Positions 2,678 to 63,329 of a DNA stretch of 64,000 nucleotides are shown here, one piece after another (position 1 is the stretch's first letter; each line of letters starts with the position of its first letter). The notes under the pieces were generated by a model. The model did not search any database and had not been told where the DNA came from. It was given only the letters and a program-made list of their open reading frames with translations. The position numbers were made by a program, and so were the translations under genes. Origin of the DNA: an uncultured Spirochaeta sp. (GTDB taxonomy: Bacteria; Spirochaetota; Spirochaetia; DSM-27196; Alkalispirochaetaceae); the NCBI GenBank assembly GCA_964496635.1, contig CAZCAE010000003.1, forward strand, positions 51,658-115,657. Reading direction: 5' to 3'.

Positions 2678-4216
2678 TCACTTCGATGCTGCGGCGACCA
2701 GAACTTCCCGAGCTCCGGAAATGCGGCGCATCGCTTCGTCCTGGCCGAGAACCCGAAGGGACCCCACCAGCGGGGGCGAAACCTTGCTACCCGTCACCGC
2801 AACCCGAAGGGGCATCATGAGATTTCCCAGTTTGGTATCCATCCCCTCGGCTGCAACGCGGAAAGCCTCTTCCATCGCTTCTTCCGCCGATTCATCGCCC
2901 TCCGGCGGAAGGCCATGCTCCTGAAGAACCTTTGCAGCCGCGTTCAACCATGCCAACGTTTCCGCCGGTGTTGCCTTTTTAGGCAGTAACTCTTCCAGAT
3001 CCCAGCTGTCGACCGGTTCGTATACGAAGCGCAGAAGAGGAACGACATCGGAAAGAAGTTTCAGCCGCTCCCGGATCAGGGGCAACAGATCCCGCAGTCG
3101 CTGTTGCTCTTCCTCTTTTTCGCCGGTACCGCCACTGCCATGGACCCAGTTTTCCTGCTGCATGTAAGGAACAAGAAGACAAACCAGCCGGTCGTCGGAA
3201 CACTTCCGAATATACTGACCGTTGTACCAGTCCAGCTTCCGATAGTCAAAGACGGCCGGTGCCTTGTTGATTTTTTCAATTGAAAAGAGCTCTTCCAGTT
3301 CTTCCCGGGAGAAAAACTCCCGGGAGTCGTCATAGGCCCACCCGAGCATAGTCACGTAGTTGGTCATCGCTTCGGGAAGGTACCCCTGTCTGCGAAATTC
3401 TATAACGCTGGTTGCACCGTGCCGTTTCGAGAGTTTGCTGCCGTCTTTGCCCATGACCATAGGAAGGTGGGCAAAACGGGGCGGATCCCAGCCAAAGGCG
3501 TCGTAAAGAAGGAGATGCAGTGGAGTGGAAGGAATCCATTCCTGGGCGCGCATCACGTGACTGATCTCCATAAGGTGATCATCAATAACGTTGGCCAGGT
3601 GGTATGTCGGGAAGCCGTCGGACTTCAGGAGAATCGGATCAGCAGGGATATCCTTGTTCTTCGTCTTGATAGTACCGAGAACAAGATCCTCAAACTCGGT
3701 CTTTCCTTCCTGCGGTACCAGGAGACGCACTACCGGCTTGACCCCTGCAGCCTTGCGTTTTTTTATCTCTTCCTGCGACAGGGATCGTCCCTCAAAGTTG
3801 TAACTACCCTTCCCTTTATCGCCTTTTCGCCTTTCTCCTCCAACCGGAATATCTCCGTCCGAATCGGAGGACACCACCCCATCAGAAGTGTAATCAAAGT
3901 ACGCCCGACCGCTGTCTATAAGTTGTCGGGCATATGAACGGTAAAGCTCGACCCGTTCCGACTGGACGTAGGGTCCCCGGGGTCCACCGCCGGCGGGACT
4001 TTCATCCGCGACAATGCCCAGCCACTCGAAGGTATCGTAAATATCCCGTAGCGCGTCCGGTTGGAAACGGGTCCGGTCGGTGTCCTCTACTCTCAGAATA
4101 AAAGATCCGCCTCCGGATCTGGCGAAGAAGTAGTTGAAAAGAGCTGTTCTGACGCCCCCAATGTGCTGCATTCCCGTCGGAGACGGGGCGTATCGTACTC
4201 GTATTTCCTGTCCCAT
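2678..4216 (-). CDS. gltX: Glutamate--tRNA ligase
   Basis: RVRYAPSPTGMQHIGG, ILRVEDTD, PTYHLANVIDDH, KLSKRHG. Confidence 0.97.
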   Translation of the reverse strand: MGQEIRVRYAPSPTGMQHIGGVRTALFNYFFARSGGGSFILRVEDTDRTRFQPDALRDIYDTFEWLGIVADESPAGGGPRGPYVQSERVELYRSYARQLIDSGRAYFDYTSDGVVSSDSDGDIPVGGERRKGDKGKGSYNFEGRSLSQEEIKKRKAAGVKPVVRLLVPQEGKTEFEDLVLGTIKTKNKDIPADPILLKSDGFPTYHLANVIDDHLMEISHVMRAQEWIPSTPLHLLLYDAFGWDPPRFAHLPMVMGKDGSKLSKRHGATSVIEFRRQGYLPEAMTNYVTMLGWAYDDSREFFSREELEELFSIEKINKAPAVFDYRKLDWYNGQYIRKCSDDRLVCLLVPYMQQENWVHGSGGTGEKEEEQQRLRDLLPLIRERLKLLSDVVPLLRFVYEPVDSWDLEELLPKKATPAETLAWLNAAAKVLQEHGLPPEGDESAEEAMEEAFRVAAEGMDTKLGNLMMPLRVAVTGSKVSPPLVGSLRVLGQDEAMRRISGAREVLVAAASK

Positions 4217-5509: not shown

Positions 5510-6315
5510 CACGTTTCCTTGTAGAGCCACTCGGTCACGTCCCGTAACAGTTTGCTGAGAATGAGGACGTACAGCTCACCACGCTGTTTTTCAACCAGGC
5601 GTTCCCATTCCGCACGGCTGTGGGACGAAGACACCGCATCCCGACACTTGTCGACGCATCGACGAACGTTCTGGTCCGTTCCGGCGTACGCTTCCAGCAG
5701 GTAGGCGCTGAGAGTACGTACTACCGTATCCTTTGCGTTAGCACAGAGGCTTTCAAGAGTTTTTCCGGCCGCATCAGTCTGTTCCTGTAACATGAGACCA
5801 AAAGCATAGCTCCATTGAACCCAGTCTCCCCGATGTCCCGAAACGGAATCTATAAACGCACCGTAATACTCCACGATTTCCTTTCCATCGTTGGAAAGAA
5901 GGTGGGGAATACCCAGTAACAGGGCAAAAGACGAAAGTTTACCCGGTCGGTTTTGCCGAATAGCTTCCTCGACACTCCTGATACCGTCGTTCCGTGAACG
6001 GATAACATACGCATTTACCAGCAAACGAATGTTTCCGTTAGAGAAACGGTGCCTGTCCAGCACCCGTTTTTCAAGCACTGAAATTACTGCGTCCCAATCT
6101 TCCTGCTCCAGAGCGGTAAAAAGCCGTCGATTCACAAAAAAATAGGCGTTAAGGACTGCGAACACGCCAACAAAGAGAAGAACCAGATACCAGTTCTCGC
6201 TCCAGAATATGCCCGCGTATTCCCACCCAAGAAATAATCCCGGCATCAGAAATACAAAAAGGAATGAAATGCCGATAAGGACGTTAAAGATTATGAATAT
6301 AGTCTTAAGTTTCAC
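5509..6315 (-). CDS. Hypothetical membrane protein (2 N-terminal TM helices plus helical/TPR-like domain)
   Basis: 268 aa ORF, hydrophobic N-terminus, translationally coupled to alaA. Confidence 0.75.
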   Translation of the reverse strand: MKLKTIFIIFNVLIGISFLFVFLMPGLFLGWEYAGIFWSENWYLVLLFVGVFAVLNAYFFVNRRLFTALEQEDWDAVISVLEKRVLDRHRFSNGNIRLLVNAYVIRSRNDGIRSVEEAIRQNRPGKLSSFALLLGIPHLLSNDGKEIVEYYGAFIDSVSGHRGDWVQWSYAFGLMLQEQTDAAGKTLESLCANAKDTVVRTLSAYLLEAYAGTDQNVRRCVDKCRDAVSSSHSRAEWERLVEKQRGELYVLILSKLLRDVTEWLYKET

Positions 6316-6386: not shown

Positions 6387-7550
6387 ATGAATAAAATTGC
6401 ACGGTCACAACTCCGGGAAGGCGTCTTTCTTACCCGGGAAACGTTTCTGGACGAGAAGTTCGTGCTCCTCTCTCCGGAAATCTCTGTAGACGAGGAGCTA
6501 CTGGAGCGGTTAGCTCGATGGCAGTTTGATTACGTCTACTCCGATGGATCCATCACCGACGAAGCTCCAGCCGTAGGCGGCGGTGTTGTTTCGACAGAAG
6601 ACGCTCCGTTTGCCGCCATTGACCAGGGACGCCAGGATGCCCAGAGCCTGAAGGAAGCCCACAAACAGTACATGGACCTGCTCCATTTCGCTGAACAGCT
6701 TTTCGGCGGTTTTCTGCAGAATAACGTTCTACCCATGCAACCCATTCATGACCGTATGAAGACCCTCCAGGGTCTTCTACGGGACCAGCGTCGCTTCCTC
6801 TTAAGAATTCCCGAACTGAATCCAGGTCATACCAACTACATCGTCGATCACGCGGTCAAGACAGCCATCGTGGCCGTTGCGACTGCGTCGTCTATGAAAA
6901 TGCCGCCACACCGCCTGATTGACATTGGTACCGCGGCTCTTCTTCACGAAATTGGAATGATTCGGCTGCCCAGCCAGCTCTATATGAGCGACCGGCAGCT
7001 CACACCCAAAGAGAAGAAGGCCATTACTACCTCTCCGGTTCTGGGATTCAAGGTACTTCGACAGTTCAACTACCCTATGCAAGTCTGTCTTGCCGTTCTG
7101 GAGTCCCGAGAGAATCTCGACGGAAGCGGGTATCCCCGAGGAATTACCGGGGACAAGCTGTCCCAGTACGCCAAAATACTGAATCCTGCCAGTACGTTTG
7201 CCGCAATGGCCTCTATCAGACCGTACAGACCACCTATTGACGGACACACCGTCATGAAGACCCTTCTCACCGGCCAGAACAGTCGATACGACAAGGAAGT
7301 GCTTCAAGCGATGGTGGCAACCTTTTCTCTCTTTCCCTACGGTACATTTGTACAATTAGCGTCCGGTAATCGGGCCGTTGTGGTTGACATCACTCCCGGA
7401 AATCCCAGAAACCCCACTGTCCGCCTGGTAACCGACCGGGAGGGTCTCGTAATTTCCGAACAACCGATTGTAGATACCGGCAATGAACAGTACGGTGTCA
7501 CCGGTGTCCTTGCTCCGGATGAAGTCAAAAAACTTCGGGACGCGATGTAA
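6387..7550 (+). CDS. HD-GYP domain protein with degenerate metal ligands
   Basis: ALLHEIGM, LDGSGYPRG, RPYR motifs; HD, HH and the distal D ligands are substituted. Confidence 0.88.
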   Translation: MNKIARSQLREGVFLTRETFLDEKFVLLSPEISVDEELLERLARWQFDYVYSDGSITDEAPAVGGGVVSTEDAPFAAIDQGRQDAQSLKEAHKQYMDLLHFAEQLFGGFLQNNVLPMQPIHDRMKTLQGLLRDQRRFLLRIPELNPGHTNYIVDHAVKTAIVAVATASSMKMPPHRLIDIGTAALLHEIGMIRLPSQLYMSDRQLTPKEKKAITTSPVLGFKVLRQFNYPMQVCLAVLESRENLDGSGYPRGITGDKLSQYAKILNPASTFAAMASIRPYRPPIDGHTVMKTLLTGQNSRYDKEVLQAMVATFSLFPYGTFVQLASGNRAVVVDITPGNPRNPTVRLVTDREGLVISEQPIVDTGNEQYGVTGVLAPDEVKKLRDAM

Positions 7551-7568
7551 GCACCGCCAGGGAGGAAC

Positions 7569-9227
7569 ATGCGAACCATATCTGTTGGTATCTGTGACGA
7601 AGGCCAAGCTACGCTGCAGGCGGGCGTCACCGTCGGAGAAGCCCTCAGCCACTGCGGCGCCGGCGGAGAAACGGCACCTGTCATCGCAGCGTTTGTCAAC
7701 AACGAGGTACGGGCACTTACCTACCGGCTGTTTATAAACGGCGATATCCGGCCTATTTATCTGAATACGTCCGAAGGGCAGCGAGTGTATCGTCGAACTA
7801 TATGTTACGCCCTGGCAATAGCAGCTTACAAAGTATTACCCAATACGCGTCTGCTTATCGGCCACTCTCTGGGAAACGCCTATTATTACTCTTTCGACGG
7901 TCGGGAGGCGGACGACACGTCAATTGAATCTCTCCGCGAAGGACTCACCCATATAGTGGAGCGGGACCTTTCCATTCGCCGTGGCGTGGTTTCCTACAAC
8001 GAAGGCATCGAATATTTCAACGACCGGAACATGCATGACGCGGCACTACTTGTGGAGCGTCACAATTACAGCGAGATAGCGGTATATCGCTGCGAGGATT
8101 TTATGGATCTCTCCCACGGTCCACTGGCACCTTCTACGGGAATGCTGAATACCTGGAGCATTGAAAAATATGGCACCGGTTTCCTTCTTGTTTTTCCAAC
8201 TGTCCGGGATTACACCACCGTTTCCCCGGGACAGCGAAGTACCACCCTTTTTCAGATTTACAAGGAATACAAAGAATGGGGTCGCGTCCTGGGAATTTCC
8301 TCAGTGGGGCAGCTCAACCATTTGACCGAAAAGGGTACCGTCAAGGATTTTATTCGGGTCAACGAAGCGTTGCACGAAAAGAAGATTGCCACAATCGCCG
8401 ATATGGTCAACCAATCGGGGGAAATTGAAAAGGTAGTCCTGATAGCTGGACCGTCATCGTCCGGAAAGACGACATTCACAAAGAAGTTGTCCGTCCATCT
8501 GCAAACGATAGGATTGACACCTATCATGATCTCCCTGGACGACTACTTTGTTCCCCGAGAACGAACACCTCTGGATGCCGACGGAAATTATGATTTTGAA
8601 ACCATACAGGCTATCGACGTCGAATTACTGAACCAGCACCTTATGGCAATCTTCAACGGTGAAGAGGTCGAGATACCGTTTTTCAATTTCAAGACGGGAC
8701 AACCGGAGTATCGTGGCCGGCTCATTAGGCTCCCACCCAGGGGTGTTCTTCTCATGGAGGGGATTCACGGTCTCAACGATGCCCTCACTCCAAAGATTCC
8801 GGCGGAACGGAAGTTCAAGATTTACGTGTCCGCACTGACCCAGCTTAATCTTGACGATCATAATCGAATCAGCACCACCGATAACCGGCTCATTCGTCGG
8901 ATGGTCAGAGACCATCAGTTTCGTGGCCACAGCGCCGAAGCGACCCTGACAATGTGGCCATCTGTACGGAGGGGCGAAGATCACAACATCTTCCCCTTCC
9001 AGGATTCGGCGGATGCGACCTTCAATACCGCCCTTGATTACGAGCTTGGCGTCCTTCGGAATTACGCTGAGCCGTTGCTGCGCCAGGTCAAACCGCGTCA
9101 CGTCATATATCATGAAGCGGTCCGGATTCAGACCTTTTTACGAAACTTCTCAACTATTCCGGAAAAACTGGTCCCTTCCGAGTCGATACTTCGGGAGTTC
9201 ATTGGTGATAGTGGTTTCCATTATTGA
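7569..9227 (+). CDS. udk: Nucleoside (uridine)/PRK-family kinase with ThrRS-like N-terminal domain
   Basis: GGAGG RBS. N-terminal TGS/SAD-like region (HSLGNAYY, DLSHGPL), P-loop AGPSSSGKTT, ISLDDYF, MEGIHGLN, RLIRRMVRD. Confidence 0.85.
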   Translation: MRTISVGICDEGQATLQAGVTVGEALSHCGAGGETAPVIAAFVNNEVRALTYRLFINGDIRPIYLNTSEGQRVYRRTICYALAIAAYKVLPNTRLLIGHSLGNAYYYSFDGREADDTSIESLREGLTHIVERDLSIRRGVVSYNEGIEYFNDRNMHDAALLVERHNYSEIAVYRCEDFMDLSHGPLAPSTGMLNTWSIEKYGTGFLLVFPTVRDYTTVSPGQRSTTLFQIYKEYKEWGRVLGISSVGQLNHLTEKGTVKDFIRVNEALHEKKIATIADMVNQSGEIEKVVLIAGPSSSGKTTFTKKLSVHLQTIGLTPIMISLDDYFVPRERTPLDADGNYDFETIQAIDVELLNQHLMAIFNGEEVEIPFFNFKTGQPEYRGRLIRLPPRGVLLMEGIHGLNDALTPKIPAERKFKIYVSALTQLNLDDHNRISTTDNRLIRRMVRDHQFRGHSAEATLTMWPSVRRGEDHNIFPFQDSADATFNTALDYELGVLRNYAEPLLRQVKPRHVIYHEAVRIQTFLRNFSTIPEKLVPSESILREFIGDSGFHY

Positions 9228-58424: not shown

Positions 58425-58454
58425 AGCCTATAGTGCTTTACAAAGCCATGTCAA
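58425..58454 (-). promoter_or_regulatory. sigma70 promoter for rny-ymdB-tlyA
   Basis: TTGACA-N18-TAGGCT; GGAGG RBS before the rny ATG. Confidence 0.55.
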
Positions 58455-59101
58455 GTTTCAAGCCAATCCGGGTCGTCATCATATCCGACAATCCGGCGAT
58501 CGAGTCGTTCGGCCCGTCGTCGAAGACGAAGAGTCCGCTTCAAACCGCGCTGCAGGAGAAGAAGCATGTCCTGGGTCATGGAATCTACGTCCGGATCATC
58601 CAGATTGGCAATTACTGCATCCAGAAGAGTGAGGACCAATCGATGGGCGTTGTTGTATATTCCCGGACGAAATACGTTTCGCCGGGACCCCTCCCGGATG
58701 ACCTCATCCAGAATATCTTCAATTCGTTTTCTCAAAATACCTACTCCCCCGGCTCCCACATCTATACCGGGATAGAGGAAGCGTTCGTCCCGTGAAAGAA
58801 CTCCCCGCAGAATCGGGTAACGACGTATTCCGAGTATTGTGAAACGATAGACCGCTTTCAGTTTGTTCAACGGGGAATGCAGGCGCCCGACCATCAGTTC
58901 AGCTTTTCGGATACCCTCCCGTTGGATCAGACGAAGAATATCTTCATAAAAACCTTCCTTGCCGGGAAAATGTTTATAAAATGTACCGACACTTAGTCCG
59001 CAATGTCGAACGATATCTTCTACCGAGACATCTCTGTAACCGTATCGTGAAAAAAGCTCCATGCCGGATCGGATGATCAGATTTCGCCTGTTGGCTTTCA
59101 T
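58451..59101 (-). CDS. TetR/AcrR family transcriptional regulator
   Basis: IIRSGMELFSRYGYRDVSVEDIVRHCGLSVGTFYKHFPGKE; ATG at 59101. Confidence 0.92.
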   Translation of the reverse strand: MKANRRNLIIRSGMELFSRYGYRDVSVEDIVRHCGLSVGTFYKHFPGKEGFYEDILRLIQREGIRKAELMVGRLHSPLNKLKAVYRFTILGIRRYPILRGVLSRDERFLYPGIDVGAGGVGILRKRIEDILDEVIREGSRRNVFRPGIYNNAHRLVLTLLDAVIANLDDPDVDSMTQDMLLLLQRGLKRTLRLRRRAERLDRRIVGYDDDPDWLET

Positions 59102-59108
59102 CGCAGAA

Positions 59109-59118
59109 TAGTATACTA
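59109..59118. promoter_or_regulatory. Perfect palindrome TAGTATACTA overlapping the predicted tetR -10 (TATACT)
   Basis: Seen directly; a TTTCGC-N17-TATACT promoter on the minus strand ends 8 nt before the tetR ATG. Confidence 0.45.
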
Positions 59119-59156
59119 CAACGTATCCGGGGGCGAAAGCTAATCCGACAAGCAAA

Positions 59157-59191
59157 TGAAGATTCTCTTCAGATATTCACTCTGCTATTAT
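59157..59191 (+). promoter_or_regulatory. Candidate operator TGAAGA-ttc-TCTTCA over the -35 of the cysteate synthase operon promoter
   Basis: Palindrome at 59157-59171; extended -10 TGcTATTAT at 59183-59191, 17 nt after TTCTCT. Confidence 0.45.
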
Positions 59192-59295
59192 ATCTTATTT
59201 TTCCATTAAAGTTACACATACATTCTTCTTGAAAGGGTTGGAGGACGATCACGACCAGAGATCACAATCACAGAAGCGGTGTCGGGAACACAACA

Positions 59296-60801
59296 TTGAC
59301 TATCTCCGGTTCGACCGGTAAGACAGCAGCTATGGATGGCGCCTCCGGCAACGTGTCGCAACAACACTATGACCTTTTCCCGTTAGGACGGCCGGATATC
59401 CTGCCGAATATCCTGCAGGATATCCGGCACGTCGAAACGGATATCTTTCCTATGGAAGTGCCCGCTGCCGGTGAACGCCCCGTATTTCTGCGGACACGCT
59501 ACCGACAGACCCGATTTTGTCCGGACTCCCTCCGTACCGATATATTTCGTTACGCTTCATGGTTGCCCGTTTCGCGTATCCTTGACGGAGGGGGTGGTCC
59601 CGTAACCTGGCAGTCTGAAGGCTACGGCCCCCATCTGGGTCTGAAGAAACTCTATATTACCTTCAGTGGATGGTGGCCCCGTCGAGAAGCACGTATACCC
59701 ACCGGCACATTCAAGGAAAATGAAGCCTACGCAGTCTATGGCCGCATGGGCGACGCGGCATACCGACACACACTGGTTGTGGCATCAGCCGGCAATACCG
59801 CCCGCGCCTTTCTCCGGGTCGCAACGGAGCATAATTTTCCTCTGGTCATCGTCGTCCCCGAAGACAACCTGCCGGATCTGTGGACAGTCGGGCTCCGAGG
59901 CCCATCCACCACCGTTGTCGCAGCAGGAAACGGCGCAGACTACAGTGACGCCATTGCACTTTCCGGACTTCTTGCGGCGGCGCCTGGTTTTCTGGCAGAG
60001 GGCGGTGCAAAGAACGTCGCCCGACGGGACGGGATGGGCACCACCTTCCTTTCGGCCGCCGAAACGATGGGACGCATTCCGGACCACTATTTTCAGGCCG
60101 TCGGAAGCGGAACAGGCGCCATTGCCGCATGGGAGGCGAATCTCCGTCTTCTGGATGCGGGATATCCTGGAACTCTTGAGAGCGGCCCCGGAACCCCACG
60201 CCAACCGCCCACCCGGCCGGCCCGGTCCGACCACGGCGCGGCCCGCCATACCGTTGGACCCGCTTTCGGCCTCGCCAGGCTCCACCTTGCCCAAAACGCT
60301 CCCTTCACCCTCCTTGTGGACACCTGGAACGCCCGCAGCGCCACCCTGCTGCCACTTGATCCAGAGACGGCCAAAAATCAGATAGACAACATCCATGCAA
60401 AGGTTCTGGCCAACCGCCACGCCCCCTGGTCCCCAACCGGGGGGCTTTTTGACGCCCTCACAGCGACCGGCGGGGTCATGTACGCCCCGGACAACACTGC
60501 GGCATCCAGGGCGGGCCGGACCTTTCAGTCCAAAGAAGGCTCGGACATATCCCCCGCCGCCGCCGTCGCATGCGCCGCTCTGGAAGAAGCTGTCGCAACG
60601 GGGACAGTCCAGCCCGAAGACTACATAAGCCTCAACATAACCGGCGGCGGCTACGCATCAGCCCGAAGAGAACTGGACACGCACCCTCTCACTGCTGATA
60701 TCGTTGTCGACCCACAACGTCAAACCACCCGGTCAATCGCTCGAGCGGTCATGAATTTCCGAAATATGCGTACAAGGAGACCAGAGTATGTTACTAGATG
60801 A
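59296..60801 (+). CDS. Cysteate synthase (threonine synthase-like PLP enzyme; CapA-type). Start may be the ATG at 59332
   Basis: Family-specific motifs LYITFSGWWP, GTFKENEA (PLP Lys), VASAGNTARAF, DYSDAI, EGGAKNVARRDGMGT, PDHYFQAVGSGTG, VLANR..GGLFDAL, LNITGGG match methanosarcinal/Bacteroidota cysteate synthases as I recall them. Confidence 0.92.
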   Translation: MTISGSTGKTAAMDGASGNVSQQHYDLFPLGRPDILPNILQDIRHVETDIFPMEVPAAGERPVFLRTRYRQTRFCPDSLRTDIFRYASWLPVSRILDGGGGPVTWQSEGYGPHLGLKKLYITFSGWWPRREARIPTGTFKENEAYAVYGRMGDAAYRHTLVVASAGNTARAFLRVATEHNFPLVIVVPEDNLPDLWTVGLRGPSTTVVAAGNGADYSDAIALSGLLAAAPGFLAEGGAKNVARRDGMGTTFLSAAETMGRIPDHYFQAVGSGTGAIAAWEANLRLLDAGYPGTLESGPGTPRQPPTRPARSDHGAARHTVGPAFGLARLHLAQNAPFTLLVDTWNARSATLLPLDPETAKNQIDNIHAKVLANRHAPWSPTGGLFDALTATGGVMYAPDNTAASRAGRTFQSKEGSDISPAAAVACAALEEAVATGTVQPEDYISLNITGGGYASARRELDTHPLTADIVVDPQRQTTRSIARAVMNFRNMRTRRPEYVTR

Positions 60802-62116
60802 AAAGACAGAACAGGAAAGCGCCGCCAAGGCAGAAGGCCATACCGACCTCTTTGCAAAATGCCACACCGACGGCGGCTATTTCGGCAAGATGCGCGCCAT
60901 AGGAGACGACGAATACACCCGGCCCGTTCTGCCGCCCAACCCGGCCCGGCACATGGTGTTCAAGGGAAAAGAACACATCATGTGGTCGGTCAACAACTAT
61001 CTCGGCCTGGCAAACCACCCGGAAGTTCTTGATGTTGCGAGGAAAACAATAGATGACTTCGGTGTCAGCTCTCCTATGGGCTCCCGCATGATGAGCGGCA
61101 ACACCGAGTACCACCTCGCCTTCGAACGCGAGCTGGCGGAACACGCCGAAAAGGAAGCTGCTTTCCTCTTCAACTACGGCTACATGGGCGTCATCGGAAC
61201 GATCCAGTCGCTGGTGGGCAAGGAAGACGTCATCGTCATGGACAAGCTGGACCATGCATGCATCGTCGACGGTGCCTTCCAGGCCCAGGCGATGAACGGA
61301 GCCCAGCTGAGAGTCTTCAAGCACAACAACATGGAAAACCTGGAGCAGGTGCTGAAACGGGTAAACCGCGACCGCAAAGGGGGCGTCATGATCGTCACCG
61401 AAGGAGTCTACGGCATGACCGGTGACCTGGCCCCCCTGAAGGATATCGCCTCACTTGCAAGGAAGTACGACGCCCGGATATTTATTGACGACGCTCACGG
61501 CTGGGGAACCATGGGTCCCGCCGGAAAAGGTACCGCCGCCCACTTCGGCGTCCAGGATGAGATCGACATCTACTTCGGGACATTTGCCAAGAGCTTTGCC
61601 TCCATCGGCGGCTTTTCCGCCTCCGACAAGGCCGTCACAGACTGGATCGCCTATAACGCCAGGACCCAGGTCTTCGCCAAGAGCCTGCCTATGGTCTACG
61701 TACAGACCCTCCGAAAGACATTCGACCTCGTCAAGGCCGCCGACGACCGCCGCGCCAGGATGTGGGCCCGCAGCAACGCGCTGAAAAGCGGTCTGAAAGA
61801 ACTCGGATTTTACGTGGGCCCCGGCGAATCCATGATCTGTTCCGTCTTTGTCCCCCTGGGAGAGGAATCCATAGAACGGATGGGCGCCGCCACCTCCGGC
61901 TTCCTCCGGCAGAACGGCGTCTTCGTCACCGCCATCGCCTATCCCGTCATCCCCCTCGGCCTGCTCATGTTCCGCATGATCCCCACGGCCATGCACGAAG
62001 AGGAGGACGTGGTAGAGACGCTGCGGGTCTTCAAAGACATGCGGGATAACCTCGGCCTTCGCCTCTCCATGACTGAAGACGAAGACAGGATGATCCGTAA
62101 AGTCTACGGCATCTGA
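60788..62116 (+). CDS. Cysteate-C-fatty acyltransferase (CapB/SulA/CFAT-type alpha-oxoamine synthase)
   Basis: AAGGAG RBS and 14-nt overlap with cysteate synthase. WSVNNYLGLANHPEV, PMGSRMMSGNT, HACIVDG, DDAHG, GTFAKS (PLP Lys), QVFAKSLP, YPVIPLG..RMIPTA. Confidence 0.85.
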   Translation: MLLDEKTEQESAAKAEGHTDLFAKCHTDGGYFGKMRAIGDDEYTRPVLPPNPARHMVFKGKEHIMWSVNNYLGLANHPEVLDVARKTIDDFGVSSPMGSRMMSGNTEYHLAFERELAEHAEKEAAFLFNYGYMGVIGTIQSLVGKEDVIVMDKLDHACIVDGAFQAQAMNGAQLRVFKHNNMENLEQVLKRVNRDRKGGVMIVTEGVYGMTGDLAPLKDIASLARKYDARIFIDDAHGWGTMGPAGKGTAAHFGVQDEIDIYFGTFAKSFASIGGFSASDKAVTDWIAYNARTQVFAKSLPMVYVQTLRKTFDLVKAADDRRARMWARSNALKSGLKELGFYVGPGESMICSVFVPLGEESIERMGAATSGFLRQNGVFVTAIAYPVIPLGLLMFRMIPTAMHEEEDVVETLRVFKDMRDNLGLRLSMTEDEDRMIRKVYGI

Positions 62117-62270: not shown

Positions 62271-63329
62271 TTACTTAATTCGTCCTAAACCCATAGCCCG
62301 TATGATCCACCGCGGAAGAGGTTTTTCCATACCCCGTTTTTTCAGGTCCAGGTACCAGTTCACCTTCTTCATGACTGGAATTTTATACGTCTCGACAAAT
62401 TCAATAAGCGTGCCGTCAGGGTCTTCAATATAGGCAAACCGTCCTGCCGCTTCACCCATATCGAAACGGGATCCCGAATCCACCGTAAAGGGGTGACCCG
62501 CCGCCTCACACCGCATTTTGAGAATGTCCATACCGATAACGTCGAAGCAGAGATGAATAAACCCCAGATCACCCCAGAATCGATCATGAAAAATCCGCTT
62601 TCCCTTGTGATTGACGACTTCAACCAGTTCCAGCTGCGTCTGCCCGAAGAGACGACTGAAGGCGCCGCTATGGCCGGCGGAACGGGTTAGCAGCACCCGT
62701 CGTAACCGACGATCCCCCCCGGGAAAACCGGCAAGGTCTGCGAAGAGATCCTGTTCGTCGTAGATCTTGGTATCATATCCCAGGACAGTCGCGTAAAAAT
62801 CCAGAGCGGCCGCCATATCGGAAACGCCTATCATCACCCCGGAGACCCCACCGGTTTGTCGCCGGGGACTGGAAAACCAGTCGTCACTTTCCACAAGGTG
62901 AAAGAAGTTACCCCATGGATCCCGGACAGCCACCCGCGCCTTACCATCGGGGTCCTCCTGAACCGCTCCAAGGACATCCGCTCCCTGAGACTGAAGGCGC
63001 TGGTAGGCTTGATGGACTCCTTTGGTTTTGATGCGTCCCACCAGCAGCCCGTAGTCACCAATCTCTACCGGTTCCGCCGGTGCCTTGGGAGGCCTGCTTG
63101 TATACTGCCATATCTCAAAACCACCACCACCGGCGAGATTCACCGCAAGCATCGCATCTCGGCTATGCACCTGCCCCCCTGTGTAGGGTGTCATAAATGG
63201 TGCCTCCGCAGCTTCACGAAAGACAGGGACATCCACGTTAAAAGTCTTCCGGTACCAATCAAATGCCGCGTTGGTGTCGGGAATGCCAATCCCCAGTTGT
63301 TGAATACCACTGAACAAGACGTTATTCAT
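62271..63329 (-). CDS. Tandem VOC/glyoxalase-fold protein
   Basis: Two VOC repeats: GIQQLGIG..FEIWQY, GVMIGVSD..LELVE..HLCFDV..IEDPDGTLIEFVE. Confidence 0.85.
   Translation of the reverse strand: MNNVLFSGIQQLGIGIPDTNAAFDWYRKTFNVDVPVFREAAEAPFMTPYTGGQVHSRDAMLAVNLAGGGGFEIWQYTSRPPKAPAEPVEIGDYGLLVGRIKTKGVHQAYQRLQSQGADVLGAVQEDPDGKARVAVRDPWGNFFHLVESDDWFSSPRRQTGGVSGVMIGVSDMAAALDFYATVLGYDTKIYDEQDLFADLAGFPGGDRRLRRVLLTRSAGHSGAFSRLFGQTQLELVEVVNHKGKRIFHDRFWGDLGFIHLCFDVIGMDILKMRCEAAGHPFTVDSGSRFDMGEAAGRFAYIEDPDGTLIEFVETYKIPVMKKVNWYLDLKKRGMEKPLPRWIIRAMGLGRIK

Follow-up and report, generated by a model that had tools for sequence, protein, structure and literature searches.

Two overlapping genes in a 64,000-nucleotide stretch of the genome of an uncultured Spirochaeta sp. 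(Alkalispirochaetaceae; assembly GCA_964496635.1, contig CAZCAE010000003.1, positions 51,658 to 115,657; hereafter the window) are predicted to encode a cysteate synthase (gene 1, 59296..60801, + strand) and an alpha-oxoamine synthase like the cysteate C-fatty acyltransferases (CFATs) of Bacteroidota (gene 2, 60788..62116, + strand). We consider it likely, with good confidence, that this operon makes the head group and the long-chain base of a sulfonolipid. The family membership of both enzymes, the conservation of their active sites, the coupling of the two genes, their co-occurrence and the existence in the genome of genes for sulfite supply are established here. The family assignments lie far above chance, with E values of 1.8e-122 for the cysteate synthase model TIGR03844, 2.5e-98 for the cysteate synthase in the PDB and 6e-108 for a CFAT in the PDB.

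The arrangement of the genes is compact. In the list of open reading frames gene 1 opens with a TTG at 59296 and runs for 501 codons, and the public gene call gives a protein of 489 amino acids that matches an ATG at 59332, which is likely to be the true start. Gene 2 has 442 codons. The two frames overlap by 14 nt, the stop codon of gene 1 (TGA, 60799-60801) lying inside gene 2, and a ribosome-binding site for gene 2, AAGGAG, can be read in the sequence within the 3' end of gene 1 (60774..60779, + strand), with a spacing of 8 nt to the gene 2 ATG. The original prediction, which was made from the bare sequence, had described two overlapping genes with a ribosome-binding site between them, and that description is borne out, as are the motifs it quoted (e.g. 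FSGWWP, TFKENEA, PMGSRMMSG and QVFAKSLP), all of which occur in the translations. A spirochaete host is supported because the nearest loci are from Alkalispirochaeta and Spirochaeta metagenome-assembled genomes (MAGs) that have the complete gene order in common with the window and an RNase Y that is 95-96% identical.

Gene 1 scored 409 bits against TIGR03844, an NCBIfam equivalog model for cysteate synthase with a curated cut-off of 324.9; summing the two in-frame pieces of the match gives 409.6 bits. The remaining spirochaete copies scored 450-524 bits on this model, and threonine synthase models gave gene 1 no more than 58 bits. In a control search of 14 reference genomes, Methanosarcina acetivorans was the sole TIGR03844 match. 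The only strong relative of gene 1 in the PDB is 9k3c, a "cysteate synthase" (333 bits, 44.5% identity), and threonine synthases appeared in the same search at E about 1e-5. Both the TIGR03844 and the PDB matches are divided into two by a 31-residue insert rich in proline, arginine and glycine (aa 295-325; 60178..60270, + strand; GC 76%). At this site the cysteate synthase of locus L002 has a shorter insert of 13 residues; every other homologue is without one. Of the 82 columns without variation in all other aligned homologues, 9k3c among them, gene 1 retains 81, including the lysine that binds pyridoxal 5'-phosphate (PLP; K140, 59713-59715, + strand, in TGTFKENEA), and it does not look degenerate. 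These observations support a predicted activity as a cysteate synthase of the ThrC-like, "archaeal-type" kind.

The claim that gene 1 is a cysteate synthase thus finds support in TIGR03844 and 9k3c, with the correction that it is not an orthologue of CapA from Capnocytophaga, which is CBS/CysK-like. The CapA model NF053679 was not among the profile matches of gene 1, which places gene 1 outside the CapA family. That model ("CysteaSynCapA") does match a CysK-like gene in locus L035 (4689-5696) with 478 bits, short of the 600 that the model requires. A CBS/CysK-like gene stands directly upstream of the CFAT gene in 12 Bacteroidota loci (L035, L043, L046, L055, L057, L064, L067, L071, L073, L074, L077 and L078), where it holds the position occupied in spirochaetes by the unrelated ThrC-like cysteate synthase; the sharing of one operon position by genes of two families looks like a non-orthologous displacement. 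Alistipes and Odoribacter have an archaeal-type cysteate synthase in place of CapA (PMC10191378), and gene 1 being of that type, the spirochaete pair is therefore of the Alistipes type.

PDB scores, a phylogenetic tree and active-site residues all place gene 2 in the CFAT/SulA/CapB clade. In the PDB its best scores were 364 bits with the CFAT of Capnocytophaga ochracea (COCFAT; 28eh) and 344 bits with the cysteate acyl-acyl carrier protein (ACP) transferase SulA of Alistipes (7u7h), to each of which it is 42% identical, as against 232 bits for the best serine palmitoyltransferase (SPT; 31-33% identity), 196 for KBL and 177 for BioF, with 31% identity in the remaining structure comparison. It fell under all NCBIfam cut-offs for BioF, Kbl, SPT and 5-aminolevulinate synthase; on three SPT models it scored 280, 274 and 236 bits where the cut-offs are 640, 500 and 670, which leaves it outside the SPT families. 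The genome has only one other alpha-oxoamine synthase, a clear Kbl (605 bits, cut-off 460).

A tree of 59 sequences was built with IQ-TREE, in which two SPTs and the Kbl of the window genome served as the outgroup. It contains a CFAT clade that includes gene 2 with support of 100/100, apart from SPT and Kbl, and a long, fully supported branch separates the SPTs from gene 2; the phylogeny thus bears out the proposed separation of gene 2 from both. The clade has two halves. One (100/99) comprises Bacteroidota and Balneolota, with both characterised enzymes, COCFAT and SulA, and the other (98/89) comprises two spirochaete groups, WOR-3/Stahlbacteria and two Legionellaceae MAGs, with the window protein among them. 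The Legionellaceae enzymes (L025, L027) carry the signature lysine described below and sit on a long branch in this non-Bacteroidota half, and no cysteate synthase gene was found within 6 kb of them.

The active site points the same way. Lysine 298 of gene 2 (61679-61681, + strand, in QVFAKSLP) aligns with Lys281 of SulA, reported as the one residue that sets SulA apart from SPT (PMC9304779), and with Lys280 of COCFAT. A lysine occupies this position in all 56 CFAT-clade rows of the alignment, where both SPTs have alanine and Kbl has asparagine. Gene 2 also retains N69, G98, G131, Y132, H156, C158, D234, H237, T265, the PLP lysine K268 (61589-61591, + strand) and F296, the residues that line the PLP-cysteate adduct (PMC13692747). 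Position 130 is tyrosine, as in 15 of 28 rows from the Bacteroidota clade; COCFAT has phenylalanine there and SPT threonine. The likeness to Bacteroidota CFATs that had been proposed from motifs therefore holds for clade membership, for K298 and for the active site, with the qualification that gene 2 is sister to the Bacteroidota enzymes and is not nested among them.

We propose that genes 1 and 2 form one translationally coupled operon, probably under a divergent TetR regulator. Gene 1, a PLP enzyme that descends from threonine synthase, would form L-cysteate by exchanging the phosphate group of O-phospho-L-serine for sulfite, which the cell's own CysD/CysNC/CysH route of sulfate activation would supply. 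Gene 2, a PLP-dependent alpha-oxoamine synthase, would then condense cysteate with a long-chain acyl-ACP, or acyl-coenzyme A (CoA), with loss of CO2, to yield 3-ketocapnine. A short-chain dehydrogenase/reductase (SDR) encoded elsewhere would reduce this product to capnine, which an acyltransferase may N-acylate. Substrate specificity, the later steps, the production of the lipid and its location in the outer membrane are parts of this scheme that we infer. The roles in the outer sheath or in adaptation to salt or alkali that the original prediction put forward are speculative.

The genome and those of relatives hold much of what such a scheme calls for. CysD and CysNC are encoded on contig C7 and CysH on C43 (NF002537, 258 bits, cut-off 154), and the cell can therefore make sulfite. 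Related loci bring these functions together: L014 (999-7275) and L015 (895-7275) have the row SDR, cysD, cysNC, cysteate synthase, CFAT; cysD-cysNC lies upstream of the pair in L011 (1978-7314); and an SDR gene directly follows the CFAT gene in L017-L019 and L023 (around 7240-8080). The genes of these extended operons are those to be expected if sulfate is activated, cysteate is formed and condensed, and the resulting ketone is reduced. A putative sulfate-export transporter of the YeiH family is encoded upstream in L017-L020 and L023. A GNAT gene lies near the pair in WOR-3 loci L020, L021 and L024, and a search of the window genome with it gave no match at E 1e-5.

Among known systems, the closest parallel is the pathway of Alistipes finegoldii and Odoribacter, which combines the same two types of enzyme, the cysteate synthase being ThrC-like and the CFAT having the distinguishing lysine (PMC10191378, PMC9304779), in hosts that, like that of the window, are anaerobes. 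The phylum differs, however, the spirochaete CFAT belongs to the sister clade, and the window genes, which we know from sequence alone, overlap in one operon beside a TetR regulator. The CapA-CapB pair of C. ochracea (structures 28eh/28fa) has the same order, a cysteate synthase gene and then a CFAT gene (adjacent accessions, PMC12927429), and its COCFAT is the relative already described, but its CBS/CysK-like CapA is unrelated at the family level to the ThrC-like gene 1, so that the two are analogous and not orthologous. Gene 1 does belong to the same equivalog family as the methanogen cysteate synthase of the coenzyme M route (TIGR03844; M. acetivorans). In methanogens cysteate feeds coenzyme M, whereas the window gene is coupled to that of a condensing enzyme of lipid formation; no coenzyme M genes were seen at the locus. 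Bacterial SPTs (Sphingobacterium multivorum, 3a2b; Sphingomonas, 2x8u) have the same fold and PLP chemistry as gene 2 and the same Claisen-type decarboxylative condensation, and differ in having alanine at the position of Lys298 and threonine at that of Tyr130.

The pair is not confined to the window. In an even sample of 301 Spirochaetota genomes, in which kin are not independent, both genes occur together in 24, gene 1 occurs alone in one fragmented MAG, and neither was found in the other 276; CFAT-like matches in this sample scored at least 336 bits, the next best match having 262. Carriers of the pair cover at least seven family codes. The original prediction of a sulfonolipid pair in a spirochaete is thus supported, only not as a one-off, as several families of Spirochaetota and also WOR-3/Stahlbacteria have it. 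MAGs of Alkalispirochaeta and Spirochaeta keep the order rny, tetR, cysteate synthase, CFAT, VOC, membrane protein, VOC denoting a vicinal oxygen chelate protein discussed below, and their RNase Y is 87-96% identical to that of the window. For the Alkalispirochaeta group, the trees of genes 1 and 2 are congruent, and the pair has therefore been inherited together. It is thus probable that several spirochaete lineages make sulfonolipids too.

The codon usage of gene 2 is unusual. Its GC content at third codon positions (GC3) is 0.765, the 98.7th percentile of the genome's long open reading frames and well above that of its neighbours. Recent horizontal transfer from Bacteroidota was considered as a cause and is rejected in view of the conserved synteny, the deep sister clade and the GC3 excess of the CFAT gene over its neighbours, which is shared by all relatives (L001-L020). 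High expression was likewise rejected, since genes for EF-Tu and ribosomal proteins reach only 0.50-0.61.

Several observations weigh against the assignment of the operon to sulfonolipid synthesis. One concerns the substrate of gene 2. All characterised CFATs fall in the Bacteroidota half of the clade and gene 2 falls in the sister half; because it is not nested among the Bacteroidota enzymes, cysteate specificity is a property that we infer for it. Gene 2 could then be an SPT-like or other alpha-oxoamine synthase that acts on serine, glycine or alanine to give sphingoid bases or other aminoketones, with the cysteate synthase serving another purpose, and both its identity of about a third to bacterial SPTs and its position outside the group to which all assayed CFATs belong would fit. 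We nevertheless regard this as quite improbable: Lys298 and all of the cysteate-contacting residues are kept where SPTs have alanine in place of the lysine, CFAT scores exceed SPT scores by over 110 bits, its translation is coupled to that of a cysteate synthase, and the two genes co-occur in 24 of the 25 carrier genomes. Six CFAT homologues have shown a strong preference for cysteate in vitro (PMC13692747).

A further set of observations concerns what becomes of the product. Neither a reductase nor an N-acyltransferase is encoded at the locus, and the best SDR candidate elsewhere in the genome (C1:152511-153320) shares just 35-39% identity with the SDR encoded in the L014/L015 operon and lies below all named SDR cut-offs. 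It is therefore conceivable that the pair supplies a cysteate-derived aminoketone that never becomes a bulk sulfonolipid, for instance a signalling molecule, a product of short chain length or capnine in its free form only, and that no N-acylated sulfonolipid accumulates. Control by a TetR regulator, which suggests conditional and not constitutive expression, would suit such a role, and the general account of the pathway leaves room for it: no enzyme is named for the N-acylation of capnine in one review (PMC10191378), and only the third of four steps is identified in another source (PMC11211663). Against this, the same two enzymes supply abundant membrane lipids in Bacteroidota (PMC10191378), and the operons of relatives contain an SDR, as expected for capnine formation. 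We judge a non-bulk product to be unlikely. The remaining difficulties lie with gene 1, which has evolved about seven times faster than gene 2 and is 57-62% identical to its counterparts in close relatives whose gene 2 is 84-92% identical. The cysteate synthase is also not beside the CFAT gene in five relatives (L001, L016, L008, L010 and L012). Two of these carry it elsewhere (G002 and G004, 483-491 bits), and G001, G003 and G005, which include the nearest relatives, L001 and L016, have none above the cut-off; L001 retains a remnant of 49 amino acids (5777-5923), and the corresponding site in L016 is 2766-3027. Such loss in the nearest relatives, together with the divergence of gene 1 and its low-complexity insert, raises the prospect that the locus is decaying, with a non-functional cysteate synthase and an inactive pathway. 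This we hold to be very unlikely, as the frame of gene 1 has stayed open for some 490-500 codons, its score passes the curated cut-off, all but one of its family-invariant positions, the PLP lysine included, are intact, and gene 2 and the neighbouring VOC gene are highly conserved. The lineages G001, G003 and G005 may obtain cysteate from another source. In L017 (4603-5995) the cysteate synthase is broken into two overlapping frames, by a frameshift or an assembly error.

Convergent to gene 2 lies a gene for a two-domain, glyoxalase-fold VOC protein of 352 amino acids (62271..63329, - strand), which is a conserved neighbour of CFAT genes. It stands beside the CFAT gene in three phyla, namely spirochaetes, WOR-3/Stahlbacteria and, in 10 of 55 loci, Bacteroidota (overall L003-L009, L016, L020-L022, L024, L035, L037, L043, L046, L058, L067, L071, L072, L074 and L078), with an orientation that varies among the Bacteroidota loci. 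Identity to the window protein is 31-34% in WOR-3/Stahlbacteria and 46-51% at the Bacteroidota loci, the latter exceeding that of the CFAT itself. Homologues occur in 20 of the 301 sampled Spirochaetota genomes, all 20 within the 25 carriers. Mean column identity in the family is 65% across phyla; both domains have invariant Gln, Glu and His residues, which would fit a metal site of the glyoxalase type, and the C-terminal tail is conserved and rich in basic and hydrophobic residues. The protein matched no named family in a profile search and has no sequence relative in the PDB. A fold search with its confident AlphaFold2 model (pLDDT 94) returned only generic two-domain VOC proteins, GLOD4, maize glyoxalase I and PcpA, at 11-16% identity.

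Tentatively, the VOC protein may be a missing and widely conserved enzyme of sulfonolipid synthesis, common to Spirochaetota, WOR-3/Stahlbacteria and Bacteroidota, although we think it more apt to prove wrong than right. It could, for example, be a metal-dependent isomerase, epimerase or lyase that would act at the membrane on cysteate or a 3-ketocapnine intermediate. When three Bacteroidota VOC homologues were taken as the starting point, no CFAT gene was found within 6 kb of them, and the link between VOC and CFAT is therefore frequent and not obligatory. One of the three lies beside a threonine-aldolase-like gene and another among gld gliding genes; in the latter, a Bacteroidia contig (L086:1276-13062), the VOC homologue is placed between gldC/gldB and gldN/gldM/gldL, a setting of note since sulfonolipids have been linked to gliding. 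If the VOC protein were a pathway enzyme, the accepted three- or four-enzyme pathway would be incomplete. Its conserved place beside the CFAT gene makes it a testable pointer to a pathway step that has yet to be described.

On the other side of the pair, a divergent gene encodes the TetR-family regulator (58451..59155, - strand; PF00440 TetR_N, E 5e-15). The Alkalispirochaeta relatives have a homologue in the same place beside the pair (65-81% identity), as do the distant Spirochaetia L012, L017-L019 and L023 (40-43%). A perfect 6-3-6 palindrome, TGAAGAttcTCTTCA, can be read in the region between tetR and the operon (59157..59171, no strand assigned). The exact palindrome had no match in relatives; of the eight relatives aligned, seven keep an imperfect version of it together with ATATTCAC in the same place. 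The region from TGAAGAttcTCTTCA to ATATTCAC, by the tetR start (59157-59200), is the only part of the region between tetR and the operon that is well conserved among relatives, and its conservation extends to relatives without the cysteate synthase gene. The palindrome is a possible candidate for a TetR operator.

A 2023 review describes bacterial sulfonolipid synthesis as apparently limited to Bacteroidota, where the lipids belong to the outer membrane and are connected with gliding, inflammation of the host and the development of choanoflagellates (PMC10191378). Full-text literature searches returned no paper that reports sulfonolipids, or genes for them, in spirochaetes, Alkalispirochaeta included. 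The suggestion that such lipids are undescribed in spirochaetes therefore agrees with the literature, and holds less well for the databases, where spirochaete homologues of gene 1 are already labelled "cysteate synthase" and those of gene 2 "glycine C-acetyltransferase" or a generic PLP enzyme. No cultured carrier was found, and the named spirochaete loci are all MAGs. We therefore view the finding as a well-supported extension, predicted from sequence, of a known pathway to new taxa. If this interpretation is correct, the range of producers would be wider than has been thought, with several spirochaete families, WOR-3/Stahlbacteria and some Legionellaceae among them, and capnine-type lipids would be weaker as biomarkers of Bacteroidota in sediments and soda lakes. 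Several unidentified polar lipids have been reported in Alkalispirochaeta alkalica, and the gene pair is a concrete, if predicted, candidate for the origin of the "unidentified lipids" of this genus (PMC13286283).

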